Positions 16,446 to 33,202 of a stretch of 64,000 bases of DNA are shown here, one piece after another (position 1 is the first letter of the stretch; each line of letters begins with the position of its first letter). A program made the translations under genes and the position numbers. Below the pieces are notes generated by a model. That model was not told the DNA's origin. It saw only the letters and a list, made by a program, of their open reading frames with translations, and searched no databases. This DNA is from an uncultured Candidatus Peribacteria bacterium (lineage in GTDB: Bacteria > Patescibacteriota > Gracilibacteria > UBA1369 > UM-FILTER-53-11): contig CAYHNW010000001.1 of the NCBI GenBank assembly GCA_964358095.1, positions 71,108 to 135,107 of the forward strand, in the 5' to 3' direction.

Positions 16446-19400
16446 TTAGAAGCTCAAGCTGACTGTAGATGTCGGTAAGCTTGGAATGTCAACACCGTTT
16501 GTCCAGTCGTTCGTAGTTGTAGCGTGACTGGTAGCGGAGTTATCAGACCATATGAAGTTTGCACTTGATGTAAACATTTCCGTGTTGTTGGCAGGAGCTG
16601 ACGTAGGCGCATTTACCAGACCTAATCCTCCAGTTGTACTACCAACGATGGTGAAGTCACCAGTTGCTGAGAAGGCACCGACACCAGTATCTCCAAGAAC
16701 GTCAATATATACACCAGCCGTACCACCGGTAGAACCGGCAACAGCGCTATAGTACAAGAGATTGCCGACTACGGCATTGTTCAAGGTTGTCAACGAAGCA
16801 GTCGAACCGGTAACGCTTGTCGTAGACAGTGGCATACCGAAGTCACTACCAGCTGTATAAGTACCAGCCGTTCCACCTGGAAGGTCAAAGTAGACACCAG
16901 CTACAGAAGCTGCAGATAGAACACTATCCAAGTCCACAGAGTTCTCAAATCTTAACGTACCAGGAATTATAGAGCCACTTACCAGGAATGGTGCACCAAA
17001 TGCTGCGGATGAAGAATATGCCGTTACACCAGCTGCACCTGTCGCACCGATTGAAAGATAGAGTATTGGATCATTTGCTTGCGTGAAAGCACCATCACCA
17101 CCAACGTCTATGAAAGCACAACCGTTAGTAGCAACCGCATATGGACAAGAAGTACCATCGAATAACCATCTCCATATAACTCTCGTATTGGCAACAGATG
17201 CGTTTGCATCACTTGCCGTGGTGGCACCAGTTAATGATACCAATTCATCAATACCACCTACGGCGGTGTTAGATGCATTTGCCGTTGAACCAAGTCTTGT
17301 TGTGTCATCGGCAAGATAAGTAGAAATGCTTGTATTTGCGGCAGCGCCAGCAACGTTCGTTCTCACCAAGTAAGTATTTGTAGCACCTTTGGCGACAGTT
17401 TCTTCCGCCGTGGCCTTACCAAGAGTCAAAGTCTTATCCCATGTAACATAGACAGTATCTGTAGTTACAAGATTTGCGCTCATTGCAGTACCACCAGACT
17501 TCAGGTTAATACCCCTTCTGTTGCGGATTGAAACATTTGACGTGACGCTTGTCTCAGAACCAGTACCGATCTTTCTGTAAAGTTCAAAGTTATTTACAGT
17601 GATTGTAGCTGTTGAGTTATATTCAAACGCAAATCTCTTCAGAGAAACTGCCTCCTTGGCATCTGCAGCAATCGTGATTGCAGCAATGTCATTTTGACCG
17701 CTGTTAAGTTTTGTAGCAGCAGAAGCAAGTTTTGCAACTGTTGGAACAGTCTTGCGTACCACAACCGGATTAATACCGGTTGAGTTACCCATCGTGCTGA
17801 CAGACGTAGCATCTTTCTTTTCGCTTGAACCTTCACCTATTGATTCGAACGAGTTCGTATCAACTGTGGCAAGTTCGTTCAAACCAAGTCGGAAGCTAGT
17901 TCCAGATACAGCCCCAAGATCAATCGTGTTTATGTCGGCAAGAATAGTGATTGTTGCACTCTGATCCTTAGCTACATAGAAATTCAAATTCGTAAAAGAA
18001 GCTTTTCCAGAAGCCATGTTTGCATACATAGTCTCTGTAGTTCCATCTTTCTTAGGATAAGACAGACCAACCCTTATCACGTTGTTACCAGCCGTAAAGG
18101 AGGCTGGCGTGCCGTTGAACGCTGTGGAATTTGTAGTCGTACCAACAACGTCAAGTTTGGTGATAGTGGAAGCTTCGGTTGCAGAAGTAAATTTGTACTT
18201 GCCCACCGTAACGCCAGTAACACCGGCAACTGCGACAGAAGCATCCGGGCTACCCTCTTGTACCCCAACTAGAGTACCACCGGTTGCAACTGTCTTAAGT
18301 ACAGTTGGGTTACCAGTAGCTAAATTATTTGGACCAGTAGCAGAAGCTCCGGATGTTTGAGCGGCCAACACCGTGTTGCCGTCCTTGTCTTGAGCTTCGA
18401 TATCGTTTGCGGTAGCACCATTTAATATCAAATCAACACCAAAGTAGCGTGTTGCAGATATCGTATTCTTCAAATCAACCTTAACAAGCCATTTCTCGCT
18501 GATTGATTTTGCCAATGTGTAACCAAGGCTATTGAATTCAGCCTTGTAGTAACCGGCTGCAGCGCCAATAGTGCCTACCAAGCTCATACCGACTGGACCA
18601 GAAATACGTGTTTCGCTATTGTCAGCATTCACTTTGTAGAGAGACACCGTGTCAATAATTGTGTTAGCAGCTGTGTCACCATAACCACTGTTGTCGAATG
18701 TACCATCATCATCAGCGACCAAGCGCAGTGTTACTTTGGTAATTTTGACATCAACACCATCGCCTGCTTTTACAGCAAGGCCAAGTGCATTTACGCCTTT
18801 TTGACCCTTTACATGAGTTTCGGAAACCGGTGTTGAAGCTCTATCAACGGTGAGAGAAGCCGCAACTATGCTCATGCCCTTGCCAAATGTATTGCCACCA
18901 ACCACATCGGATGTAGCAATGAATTCATTGGCATCCGGATCCTTGATCATGCTTGCCTCTGCGAAGTCAACACCAGCCTTAATCGTGTTGCCTGCAACGA
19001 GAGAAGAATCAAGATCCACTAATACTGACAGAGACTTAGCTGTAGCGGATGTTAGATCAAAGTCATCACTGAACGCGTTCAAGTAAGTAGATGTTGCAAC
19101 GGAAGCGAGTGTACCGTTTGCTCCATTATCCACAAGTTTTACATTCTTCACCTTCGAAATCAAATCATGATCGAACACCTCAATATAATCATTACTAGCT
19201 GCCTCATCTGCCCAAGCAAGCGCCACAGCCACAGATGTTGGATAAACCAACGTAGCTGTTACGTCAGCAGCGGAAGTATCTGCAGGTGCTGCTGTTGTAA
19301 CCTTGGCATAGTAAGTGCCAGCCGTGCCGGCAGTTACTGTTGTCAATGTTAATTTAACTACATCGTTTAAGATAAGAGCATTGTCATCTGCATCGGTCTG

Positions 19401-21395
19401 AAAAGTGACAACGCCAGCTGTTGTAATGGCTCCGGCATCTAGATCTATAGTAGCACCGTCCGTACCCGCGCCCGTACCAGCCTGGAAAGAACCGGTTTTG
19501 TTATCAAATGCAGTCTGTTCAAGCCATACATAATAATCTTTGATTGTGACATTTCTATCTGAAGTCAAAGAGAAGTCGAACAGGTGAACATTAGTCGTAT
19601 TGATAGCGACGTTTTGAGCAACAGGACCATTATCGGCCAATGTGATCTTGCCACCTTGGAAGGTGGTGTCGGTCACGAGAACCTTGGTCATAGTATTCGT
19701 TACGCGTGCGCCATAACCAACTGTTGAATCAACAGCAACCAAGTCGGTTGATTCATCGAGATAGAAGTCTAGAGTGTCCGTTGTCTTGCCACCCAAAATA
19801 TCGCCCCATATGCGGAAGCTGCGATTGTTGTTTTTTGGAATCTTATATGGGGTAGCGAGAGTTAAGACCAAAAGATCAGAATCCATAGTAGCAACAGTAG
19901 CGAGAGCAACTGTCGTATCGGCGGAATCTGTCAATTTGAGGTTACTTAAAAAGCTCCTCGTAATTGTGCCACCATGAGTCAATGTGATTGACGAAAAGTT
20001 TATATCATTTGTACCAGCCGTAAGTTTGAAGTTAGAGACCTCAACTTGCTTTTGACCAAGTGTCGGCTTTGAAAGGACATTAGCTGGAGCAATAGTTATA
20101 GTTTGTACTACAGCGCCACCAACTGTCATCAAATTTGATGTAACCGGAACACCAGTAACACCGGTTGCGTTGCTCTTAACGGCGGCCGCATTTTCAATCG
20201 TGAATTGATGCGTGCTTGCTGCAGCTGCAGCAATAGTAAGGTCGCCCTTTAGAGTCAACGTGACAGGAGCACCGTCCGCCACGACAAGATTCAAACCGGC
20301 AAAGTCAACAGTGTTCGTATCTGCAGAAATCGTCTTGCCTGCCTTTAAGCGCGTCGCGCCTTTGTAAAGACTGACAGCCGAGAAATCTGTAGAAGCACCA
20401 CCTCCAGTTCTTTTGAAAGTGATTGTATCAATAGTTCCAGCGCCGCTAAAAGTGAACATGGCTATAGGAACGCCGTTTGCACCCGGGTTAATTGTCTTTG
20501 AAGCTGGAGAATCAGGAGCGAGAGATACAGCAATCGCACCAGCTACTGGGACAGTGTCCACAGGAATATCGTCCACAGGGACATCATCCACAGGGACATC
20601 GTCCACAGGAACATCATCCACAGGGATTACCTCAACCGCAACCAGTACGCCATCAACGACGTTCATACCCGTATCGAGAGCTTCTTGCATAACATCTAGC
20701 TCAACATCCGCCCTTTCTGCAGCAATAAGTATGACATCGAGCTCTTCTGTATCAGCGTAATCAACCTGAGCGTTCAATATTACAATAACCTCAGCTTTGA
20801 TTGCACCTTTTAATGGGTTGAGTTGCGTTACGCCCTCACCCTGACCCATCAATTTGTTCTCAACCATACAAGCCATAGCGTCTTTTGCCCAAATATCAAT
20901 AGAAGCCTTGTCCGTATAAGCGTTGAGCACTGTAGCGTCGCAGCTCTCGAGACCAAGAACCTTAGCGGCGGCAACAGCCATCTGTTCACGAGTCATATCA
21001 CTTGAGCCTCCGAACTTGCCGGTGCTTACACCGGAAGTCCAGCCAAGTGTATATGCAGTATTTGCAGCAGCTTCCCACCATTTGCCGCCAACGTCTCCAA
21101 ATGGAGACATTGCGCTCTCGCTAATAACATCAAAACCAGCAGCGAGCATTTGGTAACCAACTGCTCTGTTTACAATCGTCTTGAGGCCCGCATCTGCAAG
21201 TTCGCAGTCTATAATACCCTTTTCACAGGCCGCATCAACGGCATCTTTGGCCCAAGATACGCCAGCTTTAACGGCATCAGCACCTGTATAGGAGGCGCTT
21301 GCTGCAGGAATTCCCACAACGAATGTGGAAAGAATTGAGAATAACGCGACGACTGAAAGCCATCTGCGGATTCTCGTAAGTGTTTTTGCATTCAT
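16446..21395 (-). CDS. giant S-layer-type surface protein (1649 aa) with N-terminal signal peptide and SLH-like domains
   Basis: Signal peptide ...VVGIPAASA. Two SLH-like units (FGDVGGKWWEAAANTAY..MTREQMAVAAAKVL; YTDKASIDIWAKDAMACMVENKLM). (VDDVP)n linker. A long Thr/Ala/Gly/Val-rich beta-type body. Confidence 0.85.
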   Translation of the reverse strand: MNAKTLTRIRRWLSVVALFSILSTFVVGIPAASASYTGADAVKAGVSWAKDAVDAACEKGIIDCELADAGLKTIVNRAVGYQMLAAGFDVISESAMSPFGDVGGKWWEAAANTAYTLGWTSGVSTGKFGGSSDMTREQMAVAAAKVLGLESCDATVLNAYTDKASIDIWAKDAMACMVENKLMGQGEGVTQLNPLKGAIKAEVIVILNAQVDYADTEELDVILIAAERADVELDVMQEALDTGMNVVDGVLVAVEVIPVDDVPVDDVPVDDVPVDDIPVDTVPVAGAIAVSLAPDSPASKTINPGANGVPIAMFTFSGAGTIDTITFKRTGGGASTDFSAVSLYKGATRLKAGKTISADTNTVDFAGLNLVVADGAPVTLTLKGDLTIAAAAASTHQFTIENAAAVKSNATGVTGVPVTSNLMTVGGAVVQTITIAPANVLSKPTLGQKQVEVSNFKLTAGTNDINFSSITLTHGGTITRSFLSNLKLTDSADTTVALATVATMDSDLLVLTLATPYKIPKNNNRSFRIWGDILGGKTTDTLDFYLDESTDLVAVDSTVGYGARVTNTMTKVLVTDTTFQGGKITLADNGPVAQNVAINTTNVHLFDFSLTSDRNVTIKDYYVWLEQTAFDNKTGSFQAGTGAGTDGATIDLDAGAITTAGVVTFQTDADDNALILNDVVKLTLTTVTAGTAGTYYAKVTTAAPADTSAADVTATLVYPTSVAVALAWADEAASNDYIEVFDHDLISKVKNVKLVDNGANGTLASVATSTYLNAFSDDFDLTSATAKSLSVLVDLDSSLVAGNTIKAGVDFAEASMIKDPDANEFIATSDVVGGNTFGKGMSIVAASLTVDRASTPVSETHVKGQKGVNALGLAVKAGDGVDVKITKVTLRLVADDDGTFDNSGYGDTAANTIIDTVSLYKVNADNSETRISGPVGMSLVGTIGAAAGYYKAEFNSLGYTLAKSISEKWLVKVDLKNTISATRYFGVDLILNGATANDIEAQDKDGNTVLAAQTSGASATGPNNLATGNPTVLKTVATGGTLVGVQEGSPDASVAVAGVTGVTVGKYKFTSATEASTITKLDVVGTTTNSTAFNGTPASFTAGNNVIRVGLSYPKKDGTTETMYANMASGKASFTNLNFYVAKDQSATITILADINTIDLGAVSGTSFRLGLNELATVDTNSFESIGEGSSEKKDATSVSTMGNSTGINPVVVRKTVPTVAKLASAATKLNSGQNDIAAITIAADAKEAVSLKRFAFEYNSTATITVNNFELYRKIGTGSETSVTSNVSIRNRRGINLKSGGTAMSANLVTTDTVYVTWDKTLTLGKATAEETVAKGATNTYLVRTNVAGAAANTSISTYLADDTTRLGSTANASNTAVGGIDELVSLTGATTASDANASVANTRVIWRWLFDGTSCPYAVATNGCAFIDVGGDGAFTQANDPILYLSIGATGAAGVTAYSSSAAFGAPFLVSGSIIPGTLRFENSVDLDSVLSAASVAGVYFDLPGGTAGTYTAGSDFGMPLSTTSVTGSTASLTTLNNAVVGNLLYYSAVAGSTGGTAGVYIDVLGDTGVGAFSATGDFTIVGSTTGGLGLVNAPTSAPANNTEMFTSSANFIWSDNSATSHATTTNDWTNGVDIPSLPTSTVSLSF
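20556..20628 (-). repeat. about 5 tandem copies of a 15-bp unit (gtccacaggRacatc) encoding (VDDVP)n
   Basis: Read directly. In-frame within the S-layer gene. Confidence 0.85.
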
Positions 21396-24032: not shown

Positions 24033-24108
24033 GGGTCGGTAGCTCAGTTGGTAGAGCAACAGCCTTTTAAGCTGATGGTCGCGGGTTCGATTCCCGCCCG
24101 ACCCACCA
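24033..24108 (+). tRNA. tRNA-Lys (anticodon UUU), CCA encoded
   Basis: GGGTCGG TA GCTC AGTTGGTA GAGC A ACAGC CTTTTAA GCTGA TGGTC GCGGG TTCGATT CCCGC CCGACCC A CCA. Confidence 0.92.
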
Positions 24109-24172: not shown

Positions 24173-24282
24173 GGGAATCGAATGCCGTAGGAAAGCCTTT
24201 AGAGAAGGCTTTCCGAGGCGGGGTCGCGCGCAATTTTGCTAAGGCAAAATTGACGCGTGACCGATTCCCGCCCGACCCACCA
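24173..24282 (+). ncRNA. X-element copy A: structured element ending in a 21-nt exact copy of the tRNA-Lys 3' end
   Basis: GGGAATCG AATGCCG TA GGAAAGCC-tttagagaa-GGCTTTCC GAGGCGGGGTCGCGCGC AATTTTGC-TAAG-GCAAAATT GACGCGTGAC CGATTCCCGCCCGACCCACCA. The last 21 nt are identical to 24088-24108. Confidence 0.65.
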
Positions 24283-24539: not shown

Positions 24540-24983
24540 ATGGAACTACTCACAATTAACGAAGCGGCATTATTCTCCGGTAAATCTATCCAGACTATCC
24601 GCCGCATGATCAAGCAAAAGAAAGTAACCGTAAAACGCCAAAAAACCCCTCAGGGATTCAATTATTTGGTTATTAAAGATTCATTATTGGAATCTATAAG
24701 TCGGGCTAGCCAGACACCTACTCAAGCTGAGCCGATTATTCAAGAGGATACCCGAGAACACCGCCCTATCACGGAGGCCACTTCTCCGGATCTTGAGCAG
24801 GTATTCAGACGTGAAATTGGACAGTTTAATACGACTATTCAAAAGCTTGTTGAGCAGAATCAAAAGGACAAAGAAGGATTTTTCCAATTGATAAAAACTT
24901 TTCAAGATCGCGTCGTGGTTTTAGAGGATCAAATAAAGCAATTGGGAGCTCCTCAAGCATCTTGGTGGCAATTCTGGAAATAA
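24540..24983 (+). CDS. helix-turn-helix (excisionase/MerR-superfamily HTH_17-like) DNA-binding protein with coiled-coil tail
   Basis: N-terminus LLTINEAALFSGKSIQTIRRMIKQKKV. Confidence 0.65.
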   Translation: MELLTINEAALFSGKSIQTIRRMIKQKKVTVKRQKTPQGFNYLVIKDSLLESISRASQTPTQAEPIIQEDTREHRPITEATSPDLEQVFRREIGQFNTTIQKLVEQNQKDKEGFFQLIKTFQDRVVVLEDQIKQLGAPQASWWQFWK

Positions 24984-29553: not shown

Positions 29554-29640
29554 TGGTGGGCAGGGAAGGATTTGAACCTTCGAAGGCCGTAGGCCGACAG
29601 ATTTACAGTCTGTTGCAGTTGACCACTTTGCTACCTGCCC
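29554..29640 (-). tRNA. tRNA-Tyr (anticodon GUA), long variable arm, CCA encoded
   Basis: Reverse strand: GGGCAGGTAGCAAAGTGGTCAACTGCAACAGACTGTAAATCTGTCGGCCTACGGCCTTCGAAGGTTCAAATCCTTCCCTGCCCACCA. Confidence 0.9.
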
Positions 29641-29657
29641 ATATTGTAAAACCCCAA

Positions 29658-29732
29658 TGGAGCCGCCTGTCGGATTTGAACCGACGACCCACAGTTTACA
29701 AAACTGTTGCTCTACCACTGAGCTAAGGCGGC
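29658..29732 (-). tRNA. tRNA-Thr (anticodon UGU), CCA encoded
   Basis: Reverse strand: GCCGCCT TA GCTC AGTGGTA GAGC A ACAGT TTTGTAA ACTGT GGGTC GTCGG TTCAAAT CCGAC AGGCGGC T CCA. Confidence 0.92.
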
Positions 29733-31221: not shown

Positions 31222-31737
31222 CTAACCGGCAAATGCGGACTCGCCAACGGCAACTTTTGCCTTTGACATCACGGCTTGCTCTTTCACTATAACGCTGTGT
31301 TTTTCTATTCGCACTATATGTTTAAAATCAATTATTCGTTCATTGAAGTGCAGAAATAAGAACTGTTTAGCGACATGAATATTAGCGAGAACCATGTGCG
31401 TAGTATCTATTTCAAAATCCGTTACGCGACCCAAATACTCATGATTTTTTTCCGTGATCACTTTTGCGCTTGGAATTGAGATATGACGCGACAAAACCAT
31501 TTTTACGCGCAGAACATCGTCCACCGGTAGAATGCGGTCATTATCGGCAATAAAGATAGCCGAAGTGGTTGATCTTTCTATATCCATTGGCACTATGATG
31601 TGGTTATTTTTTACAAGCAGAGCCAACAATTTGCCATTTTCCGGATCAATAATTGCATCCTTAATCAAAGCAAGCGGGGAAGATGAATACTCGCTGAAAA
31701 CCGGCATGCCGATGAATTCGGAATAAAGTTTTTGCAT
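31222..31737 (-). CDS. PRC-barrel domain protein
   Basis: Two PRC-barrel-like halves (GMPVFSE....LA.IKDAIIDPENGKLLALLV; YLGRVTDFEID). Confidence 0.6.
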   Translation of the reverse strand: MQKLYSEFIGMPVFSEYSSSPLALIKDAIIDPENGKLLALLVKNNHIIVPMDIERSTTSAIFIADNDRILPVDDVLRVKMVLSRHISIPSAKVITEKNHEYLGRVTDFEIDTTHMVLANIHVAKQFLFLHFNERIIDFKHIVRIEKHSVIVKEQAVMSKAKVAVGESAFAG

Positions 31738-31784
31738 GAGTCAATAATATAACTATTATTAAACAATATGAAGGCGTGAGTTTT

Positions 31785-31895
31785 AGGGACATGCTGGGAT
31801 TTGGTCACGCGTATTTTTTGACTTAGCAAAAAATCGCGCGGCCCCGCCTCAGAAAGCCGCCGCTTGCGGACTCGGCTCCGGCATTCAAATCCCGG
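31785..31895 (-). ncRNA. X-element copy C: structured element ending in a decayed copy of the tRNA-Pro 3' end
   Basis: Reverse strand: GGGATTTG AATGCCG G AGCCG-AGT-CCG-caag-CGG-CGGCT TTCT GAGGCGGGGCCGCGCG ATTTTTTG-CTAAGT-CAAAAAAT ACGCGTGACC AAATCCCAGCA tgtccc. Confidence 0.55.
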
Positions 31896-31939
31896 AGTTT
31901 GTTGCACATCTAAAACTAGAGTTGTTCCAACTATAGTTT

Positions 31940-32016
31940 TGGTCGGGGTGCTGGGATTCGAACCCAGGACCTCTTGCTCCCAAAGCAAGCGCGCTAGCCA
32001 GCTACGCTACACCCCG
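31940..32016 (-). tRNA. tRNA-Pro (anticodon UGG), CCA encoded
   Basis: Reverse strand: CGGGGTG TA GCGT AGCTGGCTA GCGC G CTTGC TTTGGGA GCAAG AGGTC CTGGG TTCGAAT CCCAG CACCCCG A CCA. Confidence 0.92.
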
Positions 32017-32650: not shown

Positions 32651-33202
32651 ATGATTGACCTAGACAGGAAATCAGCCGGTAAAATACTCGGTGTCTCTGT
32701 GAGGACTATAGACAGATATATTAGAAGTGGCAAGCTCTTTGCGTATGAGCGGAGCGGCAGAATCTGGCTGAAGAAAGACGAAATTGCACGTTTTTCTCGC
32801 GAGAAAATGCCCGTGGTTTTACGACCAGTAGACAAGGAACGACGCAGTCCATCCGTGTCTACATTTGCCGCCAAATCTCAGGAAACGGATTTTTACAAAG
32901 ATCTGTACGAAGAGGCAAAGCGCGTGCTCACCGACTACCAGCAGAAGTTGGAACAGTCAAACTACAGAATCGGGCAGCTTGAATCTCAAACAACTCATCC
33001 AATTTCAATTCCAAAAACCACCGAGCGGTATGAAGATTCTGCGGCTCAAGAAATAATAAAGAGGGAACTTCATGACCGCGAACGTGAGCTTGCTCAATCA
33101 AAAGAACTTTTTAAACAAGAACGCGCAGGAAAAATAGCGTTCTCTATTTTGACGTATATATTGCTCGCGGCTATACCGTTGATTTGGTATTTACTGCGTT
33201 AA
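32651..33202 (+). CDS. HTH_17-like DNA-binding protein with coiled coil and C-terminal TM anchor
   Basis: SAGKILGVSVRTIDRYIRSGKL, and the C-terminal segment IAFSILTYILLAAIPLIWYLL. Confidence 0.6.
   Translation: MIDLDRKSAGKILGVSVRTIDRYIRSGKLFAYERSGRIWLKKDEIARFSREKMPVVLRPVDKERRSPSVSTFAAKSQETDFYKDLYEEAKRVLTDYQQKLEQSNYRIGQLESQTTHPISIPKTTERYEDSAAQEIIKRELHDRERELAQSKELFKQERAGKIAFSILTYILLAAIPLIWYLLR

Follow-up and report, generated by a model that had tools for sequence, protein, structure and literature searches.

A structured, guide-bearing repeat behind tRNA-Pro in a Peribacteria genome belongs to an apparently undescribed tRNA-linked family that may target tRNA genes in a new way

The window analysed here, a 64,000-nt stretch of DNA, holds three copies of a short structured repeat that we call X, one each behind the genes for tRNA-Lys, tRNA-Glu and tRNA-Pro; no X lies behind its tRNA-Thr and tRNA-Tyr genes. 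The tRNA-Pro(UGG) gene (32016-31940, minus strand) was called by ARAGORN and scored 69.1 bits with Rfam RF00005, for which the gathering score is 29. The neighbours of this copy of X encode YbeY, a PRC-barrel protein, a T4SS pilin and MurB. The PRC-barrel ORF (31737-31222, with its ATG at 31737; Pfam PRC, E = 8e-14) starts 47 nt past position 31785, just where the original prediction had placed it, and unrelated sequence lies between it and the tail of X. The bounded Pro unit is ~150 nt long and contains no ORF. Its features, together with those of the tRNA gene, are as follows:

31940 to 32016, minus strand: tRNA-Pro(UGG), intact, with CCA encoded; positions 56-76 read CGAATCCCAGCACCCCGACCA
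31894 to 31939, minus strand: spacer S, 46 nt, with a weak hairpin (AAAACUAUAG-UUGGAACAA-CUCUAGUUUU) and then a U-run
31886 to 31893, minus strand: 5′ strand of helix P1 (the "guide"), GGGATTTG, antisense to tRNA positions 56-63
31885 to 31884, minus strand: invariant AA after the guide, antisense to T55 and T54
Directly 3′ of the guide GGGATTTG and before hairpin 1, minus strand: conserved sequence GAATGCCGGAG
31846 to 31882, minus strand: P2, consisting of a GCC/GGC base helix, a purine-rich internal loop and hairpin 1
31877 to 31855, minus strand: hairpin 1, AGCCG-AGT-CCG-CAAG-CGG-CGGCT
31804 to 31845, minus strand: J2/3 GGGG and P3, in which GCCGCGCG ... CGCGTGAC closes the hairpin AUUUUUUGC-UAAG-UCAAAAAAU
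31842 to 31804, minus strand: long hairpin, GCCGCGCG-ATTTTTTGCTAAGTCAAAAAAT-ACGCGTGAC
31792 to 31803, minus strand: tail, CAAATCCCAGCA, a copy of tRNA-Pro positions 56-67 (11/12 identical)
31783 to 31791, minus strand: rest of the tail, decayed or replaced, TGTCCCTAA (the tRNA reads CCCCGACCA)

Hairpin 1 has the predicted sequence and position. It is separated from the guide by AATGCCGGAG and from the long hairpin by TTCTGAGGCGGGG, and CTGAGGCGGGG comes after hairpin 1 and ahead of the long hairpin. The fourth pair of P3, as scored, is the G.U that is invariant in the family. The spacer carries only a weak A/U-rich hairpin followed by UUUU, and the terminator scan made no call here.

The tail begins exactly at C56 of the T loop, and its first 8 nt form the 3′ strand of P1. 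Positions 56-67 of the tRNA read CGAATCCCAGCA, of which AATCCCAGCA is common to tRNA and tail; there is no second full copy of the tRNA-Pro 3′ end in the 64-kb window. The data agree with the earlier claims that the tail is a surviving portion of this 3′ end, that its T-loop position has drifted (position 57 is G in the tRNA and A in the tail), and that the 5′ 8-mer matches the drifted version perfectly, GGGATTTG being the exact complement of CAAATCCC. Tail and tRNA differ at 8 of 21 nt, and 7 of these 8 differences fall within the last 9 positions (68-76; hypergeometric P = 0.002), implying that the P1-forming part of this copy was preserved and the remainder was not. The copy had been described as old and decaying; identity to the tRNA drops abruptly past position 67, a pattern that a deletion or rearrangement fits as well as old age does. 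Our best reading of the Pro copy is an empty cassette whose tail was truncated or decayed beyond position 67, and it is reasonable to regard it as an older or damaged member of its family.

The original prediction also held that the P1 helix, rather than identity with the tRNA, is what is being maintained. P1 is a solid helix of the family, with covariation at 8 of 11 pairs, but the argument for selection on P1 is weak at the Pro locus: the relevant U of the guide pairs with the A of the tail and wobble-pairs with G57 of the tRNA, so that it fits both and no compensatory change was needed. Across the family, too, changes in the tail mostly go without compensation. At the 12 loci where tail and tRNA mismatch inside positions 56-63, the guide follows the tRNA sequence in 10 cases and that of the tail in just 2, and ~12 further copies have uncompensated guide mismatches.

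Membership of the Pro copy in a tRNA-linked repeat family has held up, although the original prediction made no mention of the terminator-like spacers of most members, of the constant C56 start of the tail or of the cassette-like behaviour of the family. Sitting behind tRNA-Pro and a 46-nt spacer, it matched a covariance model (R1, comprising P1, P2 and P3, with a seed of 48 copies) with 71.3 bits (E = 3.9e-18, model positions 1-105), a match that is partly by construction because the Pro copy sat in the seed alignment; a strain copy of it (L118) scored 71.2 bits. Taken alone, the Pro copy barely out-folds its shuffles (z = -1.56), compared with z = -7.5 for the Lys copy and z = -7.9 for the Glu copy. 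These two other copies lie as follows:

24173 to 24282, plus strand: X behind tRNA-Lys(UUU) (24033-24108), with guide GGGAATCG, core and tail; 81.9 bits
21931 to 22038, minus strand: X behind tRNA-Glu(CUC) (22166-22090), with guide GGGGTTTG, core and tail; 84.5 bits

The Lys tail (24262-24282) is identical to its tRNA at 21/21 positions and the Glu tail (21951-21931) at 20/21. Each of the window's three X copies has an exact match to the 16-mer GAGGCGGGGYCGCGCG, against an expectation of 0.52 matches with up to 3 mismatches, and the observation as a whole is far beyond chance. Both strands are used within one GC-skew domain, with no replication-strand bias of X. Promoter and terminator scans of the three loci were uninformative, and no promoter was detected.

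A search for relatives using YbeY returned the same genome (100% identity) and distant homologues of at most 49% identity, the latter without X. Look-ups of exact proteins added three contigs from strains that share the arrangement, with two SNPs. The strain variant L199 differs from the Pro copy by two SNPs, located in the spacer and in the P2 loop. None of the three strain contigs shows presence/absence polymorphism or an empty site at the window's own X loci, which counts against the insertion model that we favour below.

Beyond this genome, a pattern scan of species-representative genomes returned 117 loci with ~65 true copies, the remaining matches being chance ones in high-G+C genomes. 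The true copies come nearly all from MAGs of Patescibacteria (CPR), to which the family is so far almost entirely confined: the carriers are Saccharibacteria, WWE3, Microgenomates, and Gracili-, Peregrini-, Parcu-, Kaiser-, Falkow-, Yanofsky- and Nomurabacteria, and a few carrier contigs bear the bin labels Gammaproteobacteria, Bacteriovoracaceae or Eisenbacteria (labels as given). The search pattern fixed three conserved motifs, and most of our conservation figures come from copies retrieved with it; in particular, the invariance of GAATGCCG and of GAGGCGGGG.CGCG in most copies was imposed by the pattern. The covariance model gave 86 matches in 67 loci, and 17 had escaped the pattern scan; in 340 kb of other CPR loci it found no X except in the window's own genome. 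X is ~90-110 nt long and patchily distributed, and carrier genomes are multi-copy, with 5 copies in one 4.9-kb locus (L108) and 3 each in two others (L026 and L076). The cores are more alike within a genome, across tRNAs, than for the same tRNA across genomes (median identity 0.70 vs 0.63, P = 0.005). In L108, near-identical cores stand at different tRNAs, and their guides differ by 1-2 nt, each matching its own tRNA.

The family is apparently undescribed. Rfam 15 yielded no X family in a gathering scan of the window or in scans of the Pro and Lys copies at E ≤ 10, a gathering scan of 15 X loci returned only tRNA and tmRNA, and a full-text literature search gave no description of X. The X pattern had 0 matches among IMG/VR viral contigs, where neither a free nor a viral form was seen, and X is thus no recognisable phage attP.

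X folds as a three-way junction. P1 pairs the 5′ strand with the initial 8-16 nt of the tail; P2 stands on a 3-bp GCC/GGC base and has a purine-rich internal loop and a variable hairpin; and P3 opens with G-C, U-A, C-G and G.U pairs and carries a variable hairpin on top. In the 48-sequence alignment, 90.5% of cells are paired, as against 35-42% when the partners are slid, and 169 cells show double changes compared with 65 in shuffles (0 of 500 shuffles reach 169). P2b and the inner pairs of P3 covary as well as P1, and copies found only by the model include compensatory variants of P2a (GGC/GCC, AGC/GCU and CGC/GCG). The P3 G.U is present in 48/48 sequences, and 29/48 have a second G.U. The covariation and the G.U pairs together assign the fold to the tRNA-sense strand, in the form of either RNA or top-strand ssDNA. 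The fold is real and strand-specific: its anatomy, its covariation and its strandedness are all direct observations. GNRA tetraloops and C-GNA-G triloops were both common in a census of terminal loops, a result that does not separate RNA from ssDNA. The GAA past the 5′ strand of P1 is invariant, also in the pattern-independent copies, and is antisense to T54-T55-C56, which makes the 5′ strand complementary to an uninterrupted T loop across the 55/56 junction.

Several known identities were tried for this fold and rejected. A T-loop intron or split tRNA is ruled out by the completeness of the tRNA upstream, a tmRNA relative by the lack of acceptor pairing and by negative ARAGORN and Rfam results, a hammerhead by its missing core, and an integron attC by the missing R″ (RYYYAAC) and R′ (GTTRRRY) motifs, the ends reading GGGATTTGAAT and GTGACCAAATCCC. 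Models of the hammerhead, twister, twister-sister, hatchet, pistol and HDV-like ribozymes had no match at E ≤ 10 in the Pro and Lys copies.

X is linked to tRNA genes to an extent that is directly observed: 69 of the 84 covariance-model copies lie <400 nt downstream of a same-strand tRNA or tmRNA, at a median spacing of 50 nt (mode 40-58 nt), and the tRNAs served belong to at least 16 amino-acid classes. A further target is tmRNA: one copy closely follows such a gene, and its tail and the tmRNA have a T-loop/T-stem 9-mer in common. In most loci the tail is identical to the adjacent tRNA at 21/21 positions. Its left edge is fixed, falling at C56 in every case, also a direct observation, and its right edge is variable, roughly at the tRNA end (at the discriminator or C74 where the genes lack CCA); in tandem loci, the identity runs on into the spacer of the following unit. 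A fixed left edge combined with a loose right edge is the signature of the identity blocks at att sites of T-loop-class integrases. In three loci (L036, L064 and L066) the tail includes CCA and the working tRNA gene does not, whereas in most other CCA-less lineages the tail copies the gene (CAA...).

These ends bear on the idea that X, as a small ribozyme or as the RNA that guides a host enzyme, acts on the tRNA 55/56 phosphodiester and captures or donates the 56-76 fragment, so that genomic X plus tail would be retro-copies or templates of a tRNA reaction. The guide spans the right junction, with AA opposite T54-T55 and G opposite C56; the 55/56 junction sits at the three-way junction beside the conserved unpaired GAA and GGGG; and the three CCA-ended tails on genes without CCA are what such a reaction might leave. 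We nevertheless consider this quite improbable, given that X resembles no Rfam ribozyme, that no RT is linked to it, that most CCA-less lineages have a gene-copying tail rather than a mature CCA end, and that the position of X, past the terminator and right behind the same tRNA gene, is left without account.

The spacers S of most members fold into a strong terminator-like hairpin followed by a U-tract (50 spacers folded), and a strict terminator scan called 21 of 66 spacers, the rate in random windows being 9%. Past the tail, terminator-like hairpins are likewise enriched (13/64). X was found behind 0 of 17 operon-internal tRNAs and behind 70 of 111 terminal or solitary ones, the latter being a count from ascertainment-biased loci; in L108 the figure is 4/5. 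A tRNA-Pro(UGG) X is common to three distant genomes (the window's, L002 and L043), its structure is kept by compensatory changes, and each of the three tails follows the tRNA of its own lineage. Copies have also been lost or truncated, as in the Gly copy of L002, the distal copies of tandems and the decayed tails.

Such retention also fits a resident element under host-level selection, and X could be a host-beneficial RNA whose guide pairs with the T loop of the cognate tRNA and whose tail mimics the 3′ fragment of the tRNA or serves as a spare one. Such an RNA would be made by read-through from the tRNA operon or from the tRNA-like 3′ unit, could repair or buffer tRNAs cut in the T loop or control tRNA maturation, and would have spread by duplication and been homogenised within genomes. 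Much of the linkage data can be read this way: most terminal or solitary tRNAs of the carrier genomes have X (with the bias just mentioned), the L002 and L043 copies keep their structure and have tails with a lineage-specific base, the invariant GAA is antisense to an intact tRNA, the guide stays complementary to the tRNA despite tail drift, the tails of L036, L064 and L066 carry a CCA that the gene lacks, and the invariant G.U with the conserved junction purines suggests an RNA or RNP active site. We regard this as unlikely. A terminator-like hairpin usually stands between tRNA and X with no promoter detected, X is patchy among CPR with none in the 340 kb of other CPR loci, the loss or truncation of copies has had no obvious effect, the tails of most lineages with CCA-less tRNA genes are CCA-less too, and, as described next, insertion polymorphism with cargo exists.

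The Saccharibacteria loci L093 and L103 share 97.7% identity on the upstream side of tRNA-Gly(CCC) and differ downstream, and the differing blocks are bounded by a 21-nt repeat with X at the right end. In L103 the tRNA is followed by R2 and what lies beyond it, and in L093 the order is tRNA, S-Xa, tail, Tmk-ThyX-nucleotidyltransferase, S-Xb, tail and then R2, which is 100% identical between the two loci over 50 nt. Two further cassettes are present in L103, one bearing a DGR (RT plus bAvd), and each ends with X and a tail. All four tails in these two loci match the tRNA at 21/21 positions, even though identity among the X units is only 88%. One 196-nt X unit is 100% identical in L093 and L103 and adjoins different cargo (Tmk/ThyX/nucleotidyltransferase in one and the DGR in the other). 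Tandem units occur in L040, L041, L089 and L102; all but L089 have a decayed or truncated distal copy, and in L089 the repeat is exact through all 133 nt compared. Insertion polymorphism and arrays are thus plain to see in the family.

The cargo ORFs are Tmk, ThyX, a nucleotidyltransferase, the DGR RT with bAvd, and unknowns, and no protein gene is linked to X: when the ORFs flanking 69 copies were clustered all-against-all, no family turned up at more than 5 loci, and the recurrent neighbours are housekeeping ones, such as a secreted glycosidase-like family near tRNA-Leu. No recombinase, transposase or RT is consistently near X, no recombinase or integrase is present in any cargo, and the sole RT seen is part of the DGR that is carried as cargo. 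An ORF of ~200 aa beside X in L103 was tried as a candidate enzyme and set aside, as it is a member of a large CPR family that stands next to bAvd and RT elsewhere; for that reason it is most likely the target protein of the DGR and not a recombinase.

One could take X for a passive remnant, the attP arm of integrase-bearing T-loop islands whose interior was lost, as in cis-mobilizable remnants. The direct repeat of the tRNA 3′ end does begin in the T loop, tmRNA is also targeted, tandem accretion and cargo-bearing versions are known, and other pseudo-3′-end remnants are present in the same Saccharibacteria loci. Yet more than 60 copies share equal boundaries and a 40-60-nt spacer, which independent deletions would not yield; the covariation and the invariant G.U speak of selection on a single-stranded fold that duplex arm sites do not need; one family covers tRNAs of at least 16 amino-acid classes with guides matched to each; and no cargo contains an integrase. 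Passive remnants therefore strike us as improbable.

The model that we favour, and to which we give about an even chance of being right, is that X is the conserved cis-acting end module of small non-autonomous, guide-bearing insertion cassettes that enter tRNA and tmRNA genes at 55/56. The inserted block, whose direction we infer, would run rightwards from tRNA position 56 and would contain a replacement tRNA 3′ end (56-76), usually a terminator-like S, 0-3 kb of optional cargo, and then X, that is, a guide antisense to T-loop/T-stem positions 54-63 together with the three-way-junction core. The original tRNA 3′ end would be pushed downstream together with its native flank and would persist as the tail, joined to the X core. 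The guide could pair with 56-63 of the tail in cis (P1) or with those of an intact tRNA sequence, and such pairing, with the tRNA-sense strand active as RNA or as folded ssDNA, is presumed to select and align the target. The recombining activity, which is not encoded beside X, would have to act in trans or reside in the RNA itself.

Insertion at 55/56 accounts for the fixed left and loose right edges of identity and for the perfect tails on diverged X units, and CCA in a tail but not in the gene (L036, L064 and L066) is expected of a displaced original 3′ end. Cassette insertion likewise accounts for the terminators on both sides and the absence of X behind operon-internal tRNAs, for tandem accretion with decaying older distal copies, for the use of tmRNA, and for a distribution that is patchy yet locally saturating. 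Against it count the want of any consistent recombinase, transposase or RT near X, and of any viral form. A crossover at 55/56 into a new tRNA would, moreover, produce a chimeric and probably dead tRNA unless the cassette has that tRNA's 3′ end, and target switching is thus left without account by this model.

A bolder version, which we hold to be possible but on the doubtful side, is that X is the nucleic-acid part of a hitherto unknown programmable insertion system, a ~100-nt RNA or folded single strand whose guide reads positions 54-63, or else a new small tRNA-acting ribozyme. X, alone or with a host enzyme encoded elsewhere, would then break and rejoin at 55/56, and cassettes could be loaded behind almost any tRNA gene in a manner both RNA-guided and integron-like.

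Among known systems, the closest resemblance is to the T-loop (P4-type) att sites of tyrosine integrases, which also repeat the tRNA 3′ end from the T loop to approximately the gene end. As with X, islands of this kind restore the tRNA and use tmRNA too, and CIMEs and the Dehalococcoides ssrA islands form tandem arrays with the newest unit nearest the tRNA and variable cargo. Unlike them, X has no integrase inside or adjoining, may amount to only ~150-190 nt as a whole unit, covers at least 16 amino-acid classes of tRNA with one family, and possesses a covarying, strand-specific three-way junction and a target-complementary guide. Integron attC sites are, like X, structured, strand-specific elements resembling recombination sites at the 3′ end of a cassette, and integrons share with it arrays beside a fixed entry site, empty cassettes and an enzyme encoded outside the cassette. 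X differs in lacking R″/R′ core sites (RYYYAAC/GTTRRRY) and any visible intI (none is adjacent to the Pro copy), in having the T loop of many different tRNA genes as its entry site, and in the strongly conserved primary sequence of its junction, which is three-way where attC is an imperfect hairpin.

A target-complementary stretch that varies with its target, within an element-borne structure, is also found in the bridge RNA of IS110, the seekRNA of IS1111, the omega RNA of TnpB/IscB and the EBS/IGS of group II and group I introns. X, in contrast to these guide-RNA elements, has no adjacent recombinase, nuclease or RT gene and no Rfam match. It has a single 5′ guide that closes a three-way junction, whereas bridge RNA and seekRNA elements have two internal guide loops, a DEDD recombinase gene and no long target repeat, compared with the 12-21-nt repeat of X; and its ~100 nt fall far short of the size of self-splicing introns. 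REP/BIME sequences with their RAYT are many, short, lineage-specific structured repeats after transcription units with no gene inside, like X, and X, like them, could plausibly depend on one enzyme that acts in trans from another genomic site, but X is tied to tRNA genes, has target-derived sequence on both flanks of its core, and occurs on both strands within one GC-skew domain. X displays the hallmark of tRNA-targeted integrative elements but has no integrase, and it matches neither the attC motifs nor the architecture of bridge RNAs nor the models of known ribozymes; we file it as a miniature, structured, guide-bearing, multi-tRNA variant of the tRNA-gene-targeting integrative elements.

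X may thus be a new way to target tRNA genes. If the insertion model is true, CPR bacteria hold dozens of tiny elements that choose their targets by pairing with the most conserved loop of tRNA, that rebuild the tRNA on entry, and that may carry cargo such as a DGR or thymidylate genes. They would form a new class, protein-free in cis, among the few guide-directed mobile elements, would account for some of the gene flux around tRNA genes in streamlined CPR genomes, and would offer a very small programmable targeting module. Should X serve the host instead, a major and poorly understood branch of the bacteria would possess a widespread RNA, so far unannotated, that is tied to the integrity of its tRNAs. 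On either reading, X produces assembly breaks and misleading pseudo-tRNA ends in CPR MAGs; among the three strain contigs found for the window, a scaffold gap mimicked an insertion.

At the tRNA-Gly loci L093 and L103, both retrieved in the family search, several generations of pseudo-3′ ends are present. Several tails (the element's copies of the tRNA 3′ end) are followed by GATGTTTGAAGTTCCGATAGACCCGTCTCCC..., a degenerate tRNA-Gly copy covering positions ~53–75, and a further remnant, GGTTTCCAGACTCGACTGGTGCTCCA, lies before S, the spacer between the tRNA and X:

L093, 3916-3952, 6216-6254 and 6784-6822 (reverse-complement coordinates): tRNA-Gly pseudo-3′ ends
L103, after each tail: tRNA-Gly pseudo-3′ ends

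Apparently, these pseudo-3′ ends come from at least two kinds of inserting element. Locus L014 contains the following:

L014, 3750-3945, minus strand: decayed X plus hairpin-type mimic, behind an intact X

In this decayed X the spacer is conserved and the core has diverged. Behind it come a simple hairpin and a Gly-like acceptor 3′ strand with a CCA end (GCGGGGC...GCCCCGTCGCCTGCTCCA), which together imitate a tRNA 3′ end in a second, hairpin-type form.

In three loci with the T-loop CAATT (L043, L117 and L074), one T has been lost or altered in the tail (CAAT-C or CAATC), although the guide, the element's antisense 5′ 8-mer, is still complementary to the tRNA. That like changes recur at positions 59/60 could reflect slippage or be a signature of copying.

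Locus L103 also carries the following cargo, flanked by two X units, behind tRNA-Gly(CCC):

L103, 884-3417: complete DGR, comprising a target protein of ~205 aa, bAvd and an RVT_1 reverse transcriptase

The adjoining cassette holds a target-like ORF paralogous to the DGR target, and this ~200-aa target-like family, which lacks a Pfam domain, has >890 members in CPR.

Across the family, X is never found behind operon-internal tRNAs. In the window, all tRNAs but the two of the following pair, three in number, have X behind them:

29554-29732, minus strand: tRNA-Thr/tRNA-Tyr pair, 17 nt apart

The tRNA-Tyr of this pair is terminal, yet has no X.

Many copies of X lie at contig ends, within ~200 nt of them, or beside N-runs (L011, L084, L081, L025, L117, L035 and L018). 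Such positions would be expected if short-read assemblies of CPR genomes break where copies are nearly identical. A strain contig of the window, L198 (ERZ1292638 NODE_244), contains the following:

L198, 2180-2270: N-run inside tRNA-Pro

After the N-run comes another, distinct tRNA-Pro-like gene, represented by its 5′ half, with the 3′ half common to both. This is probably a scaffolding join of two tRNA-Pro genes; it looks as if 79 nt had been inserted between YbeY and the PRC gene.

Three genes lie near X copies in the window:

24540-24983: small HTH_17 (excisionase/MerR-like) gene, downstream of the Lys tail
32651-33202: small HTH_17 (excisionase/MerR-like) gene, upstream of YbeY
16446-21395, minus strand: ORF of 1649 aa whose N-terminus carries an S-layer homology domain

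The two HTH_17 genes, of a kind frequent in CPR, are within ~260–640 nt of X-bearing tRNA loci, with no link to X established. Some 500 nt separate the Glu copy of X from the start of the S-layer homology ORF, which lies downstream of it.
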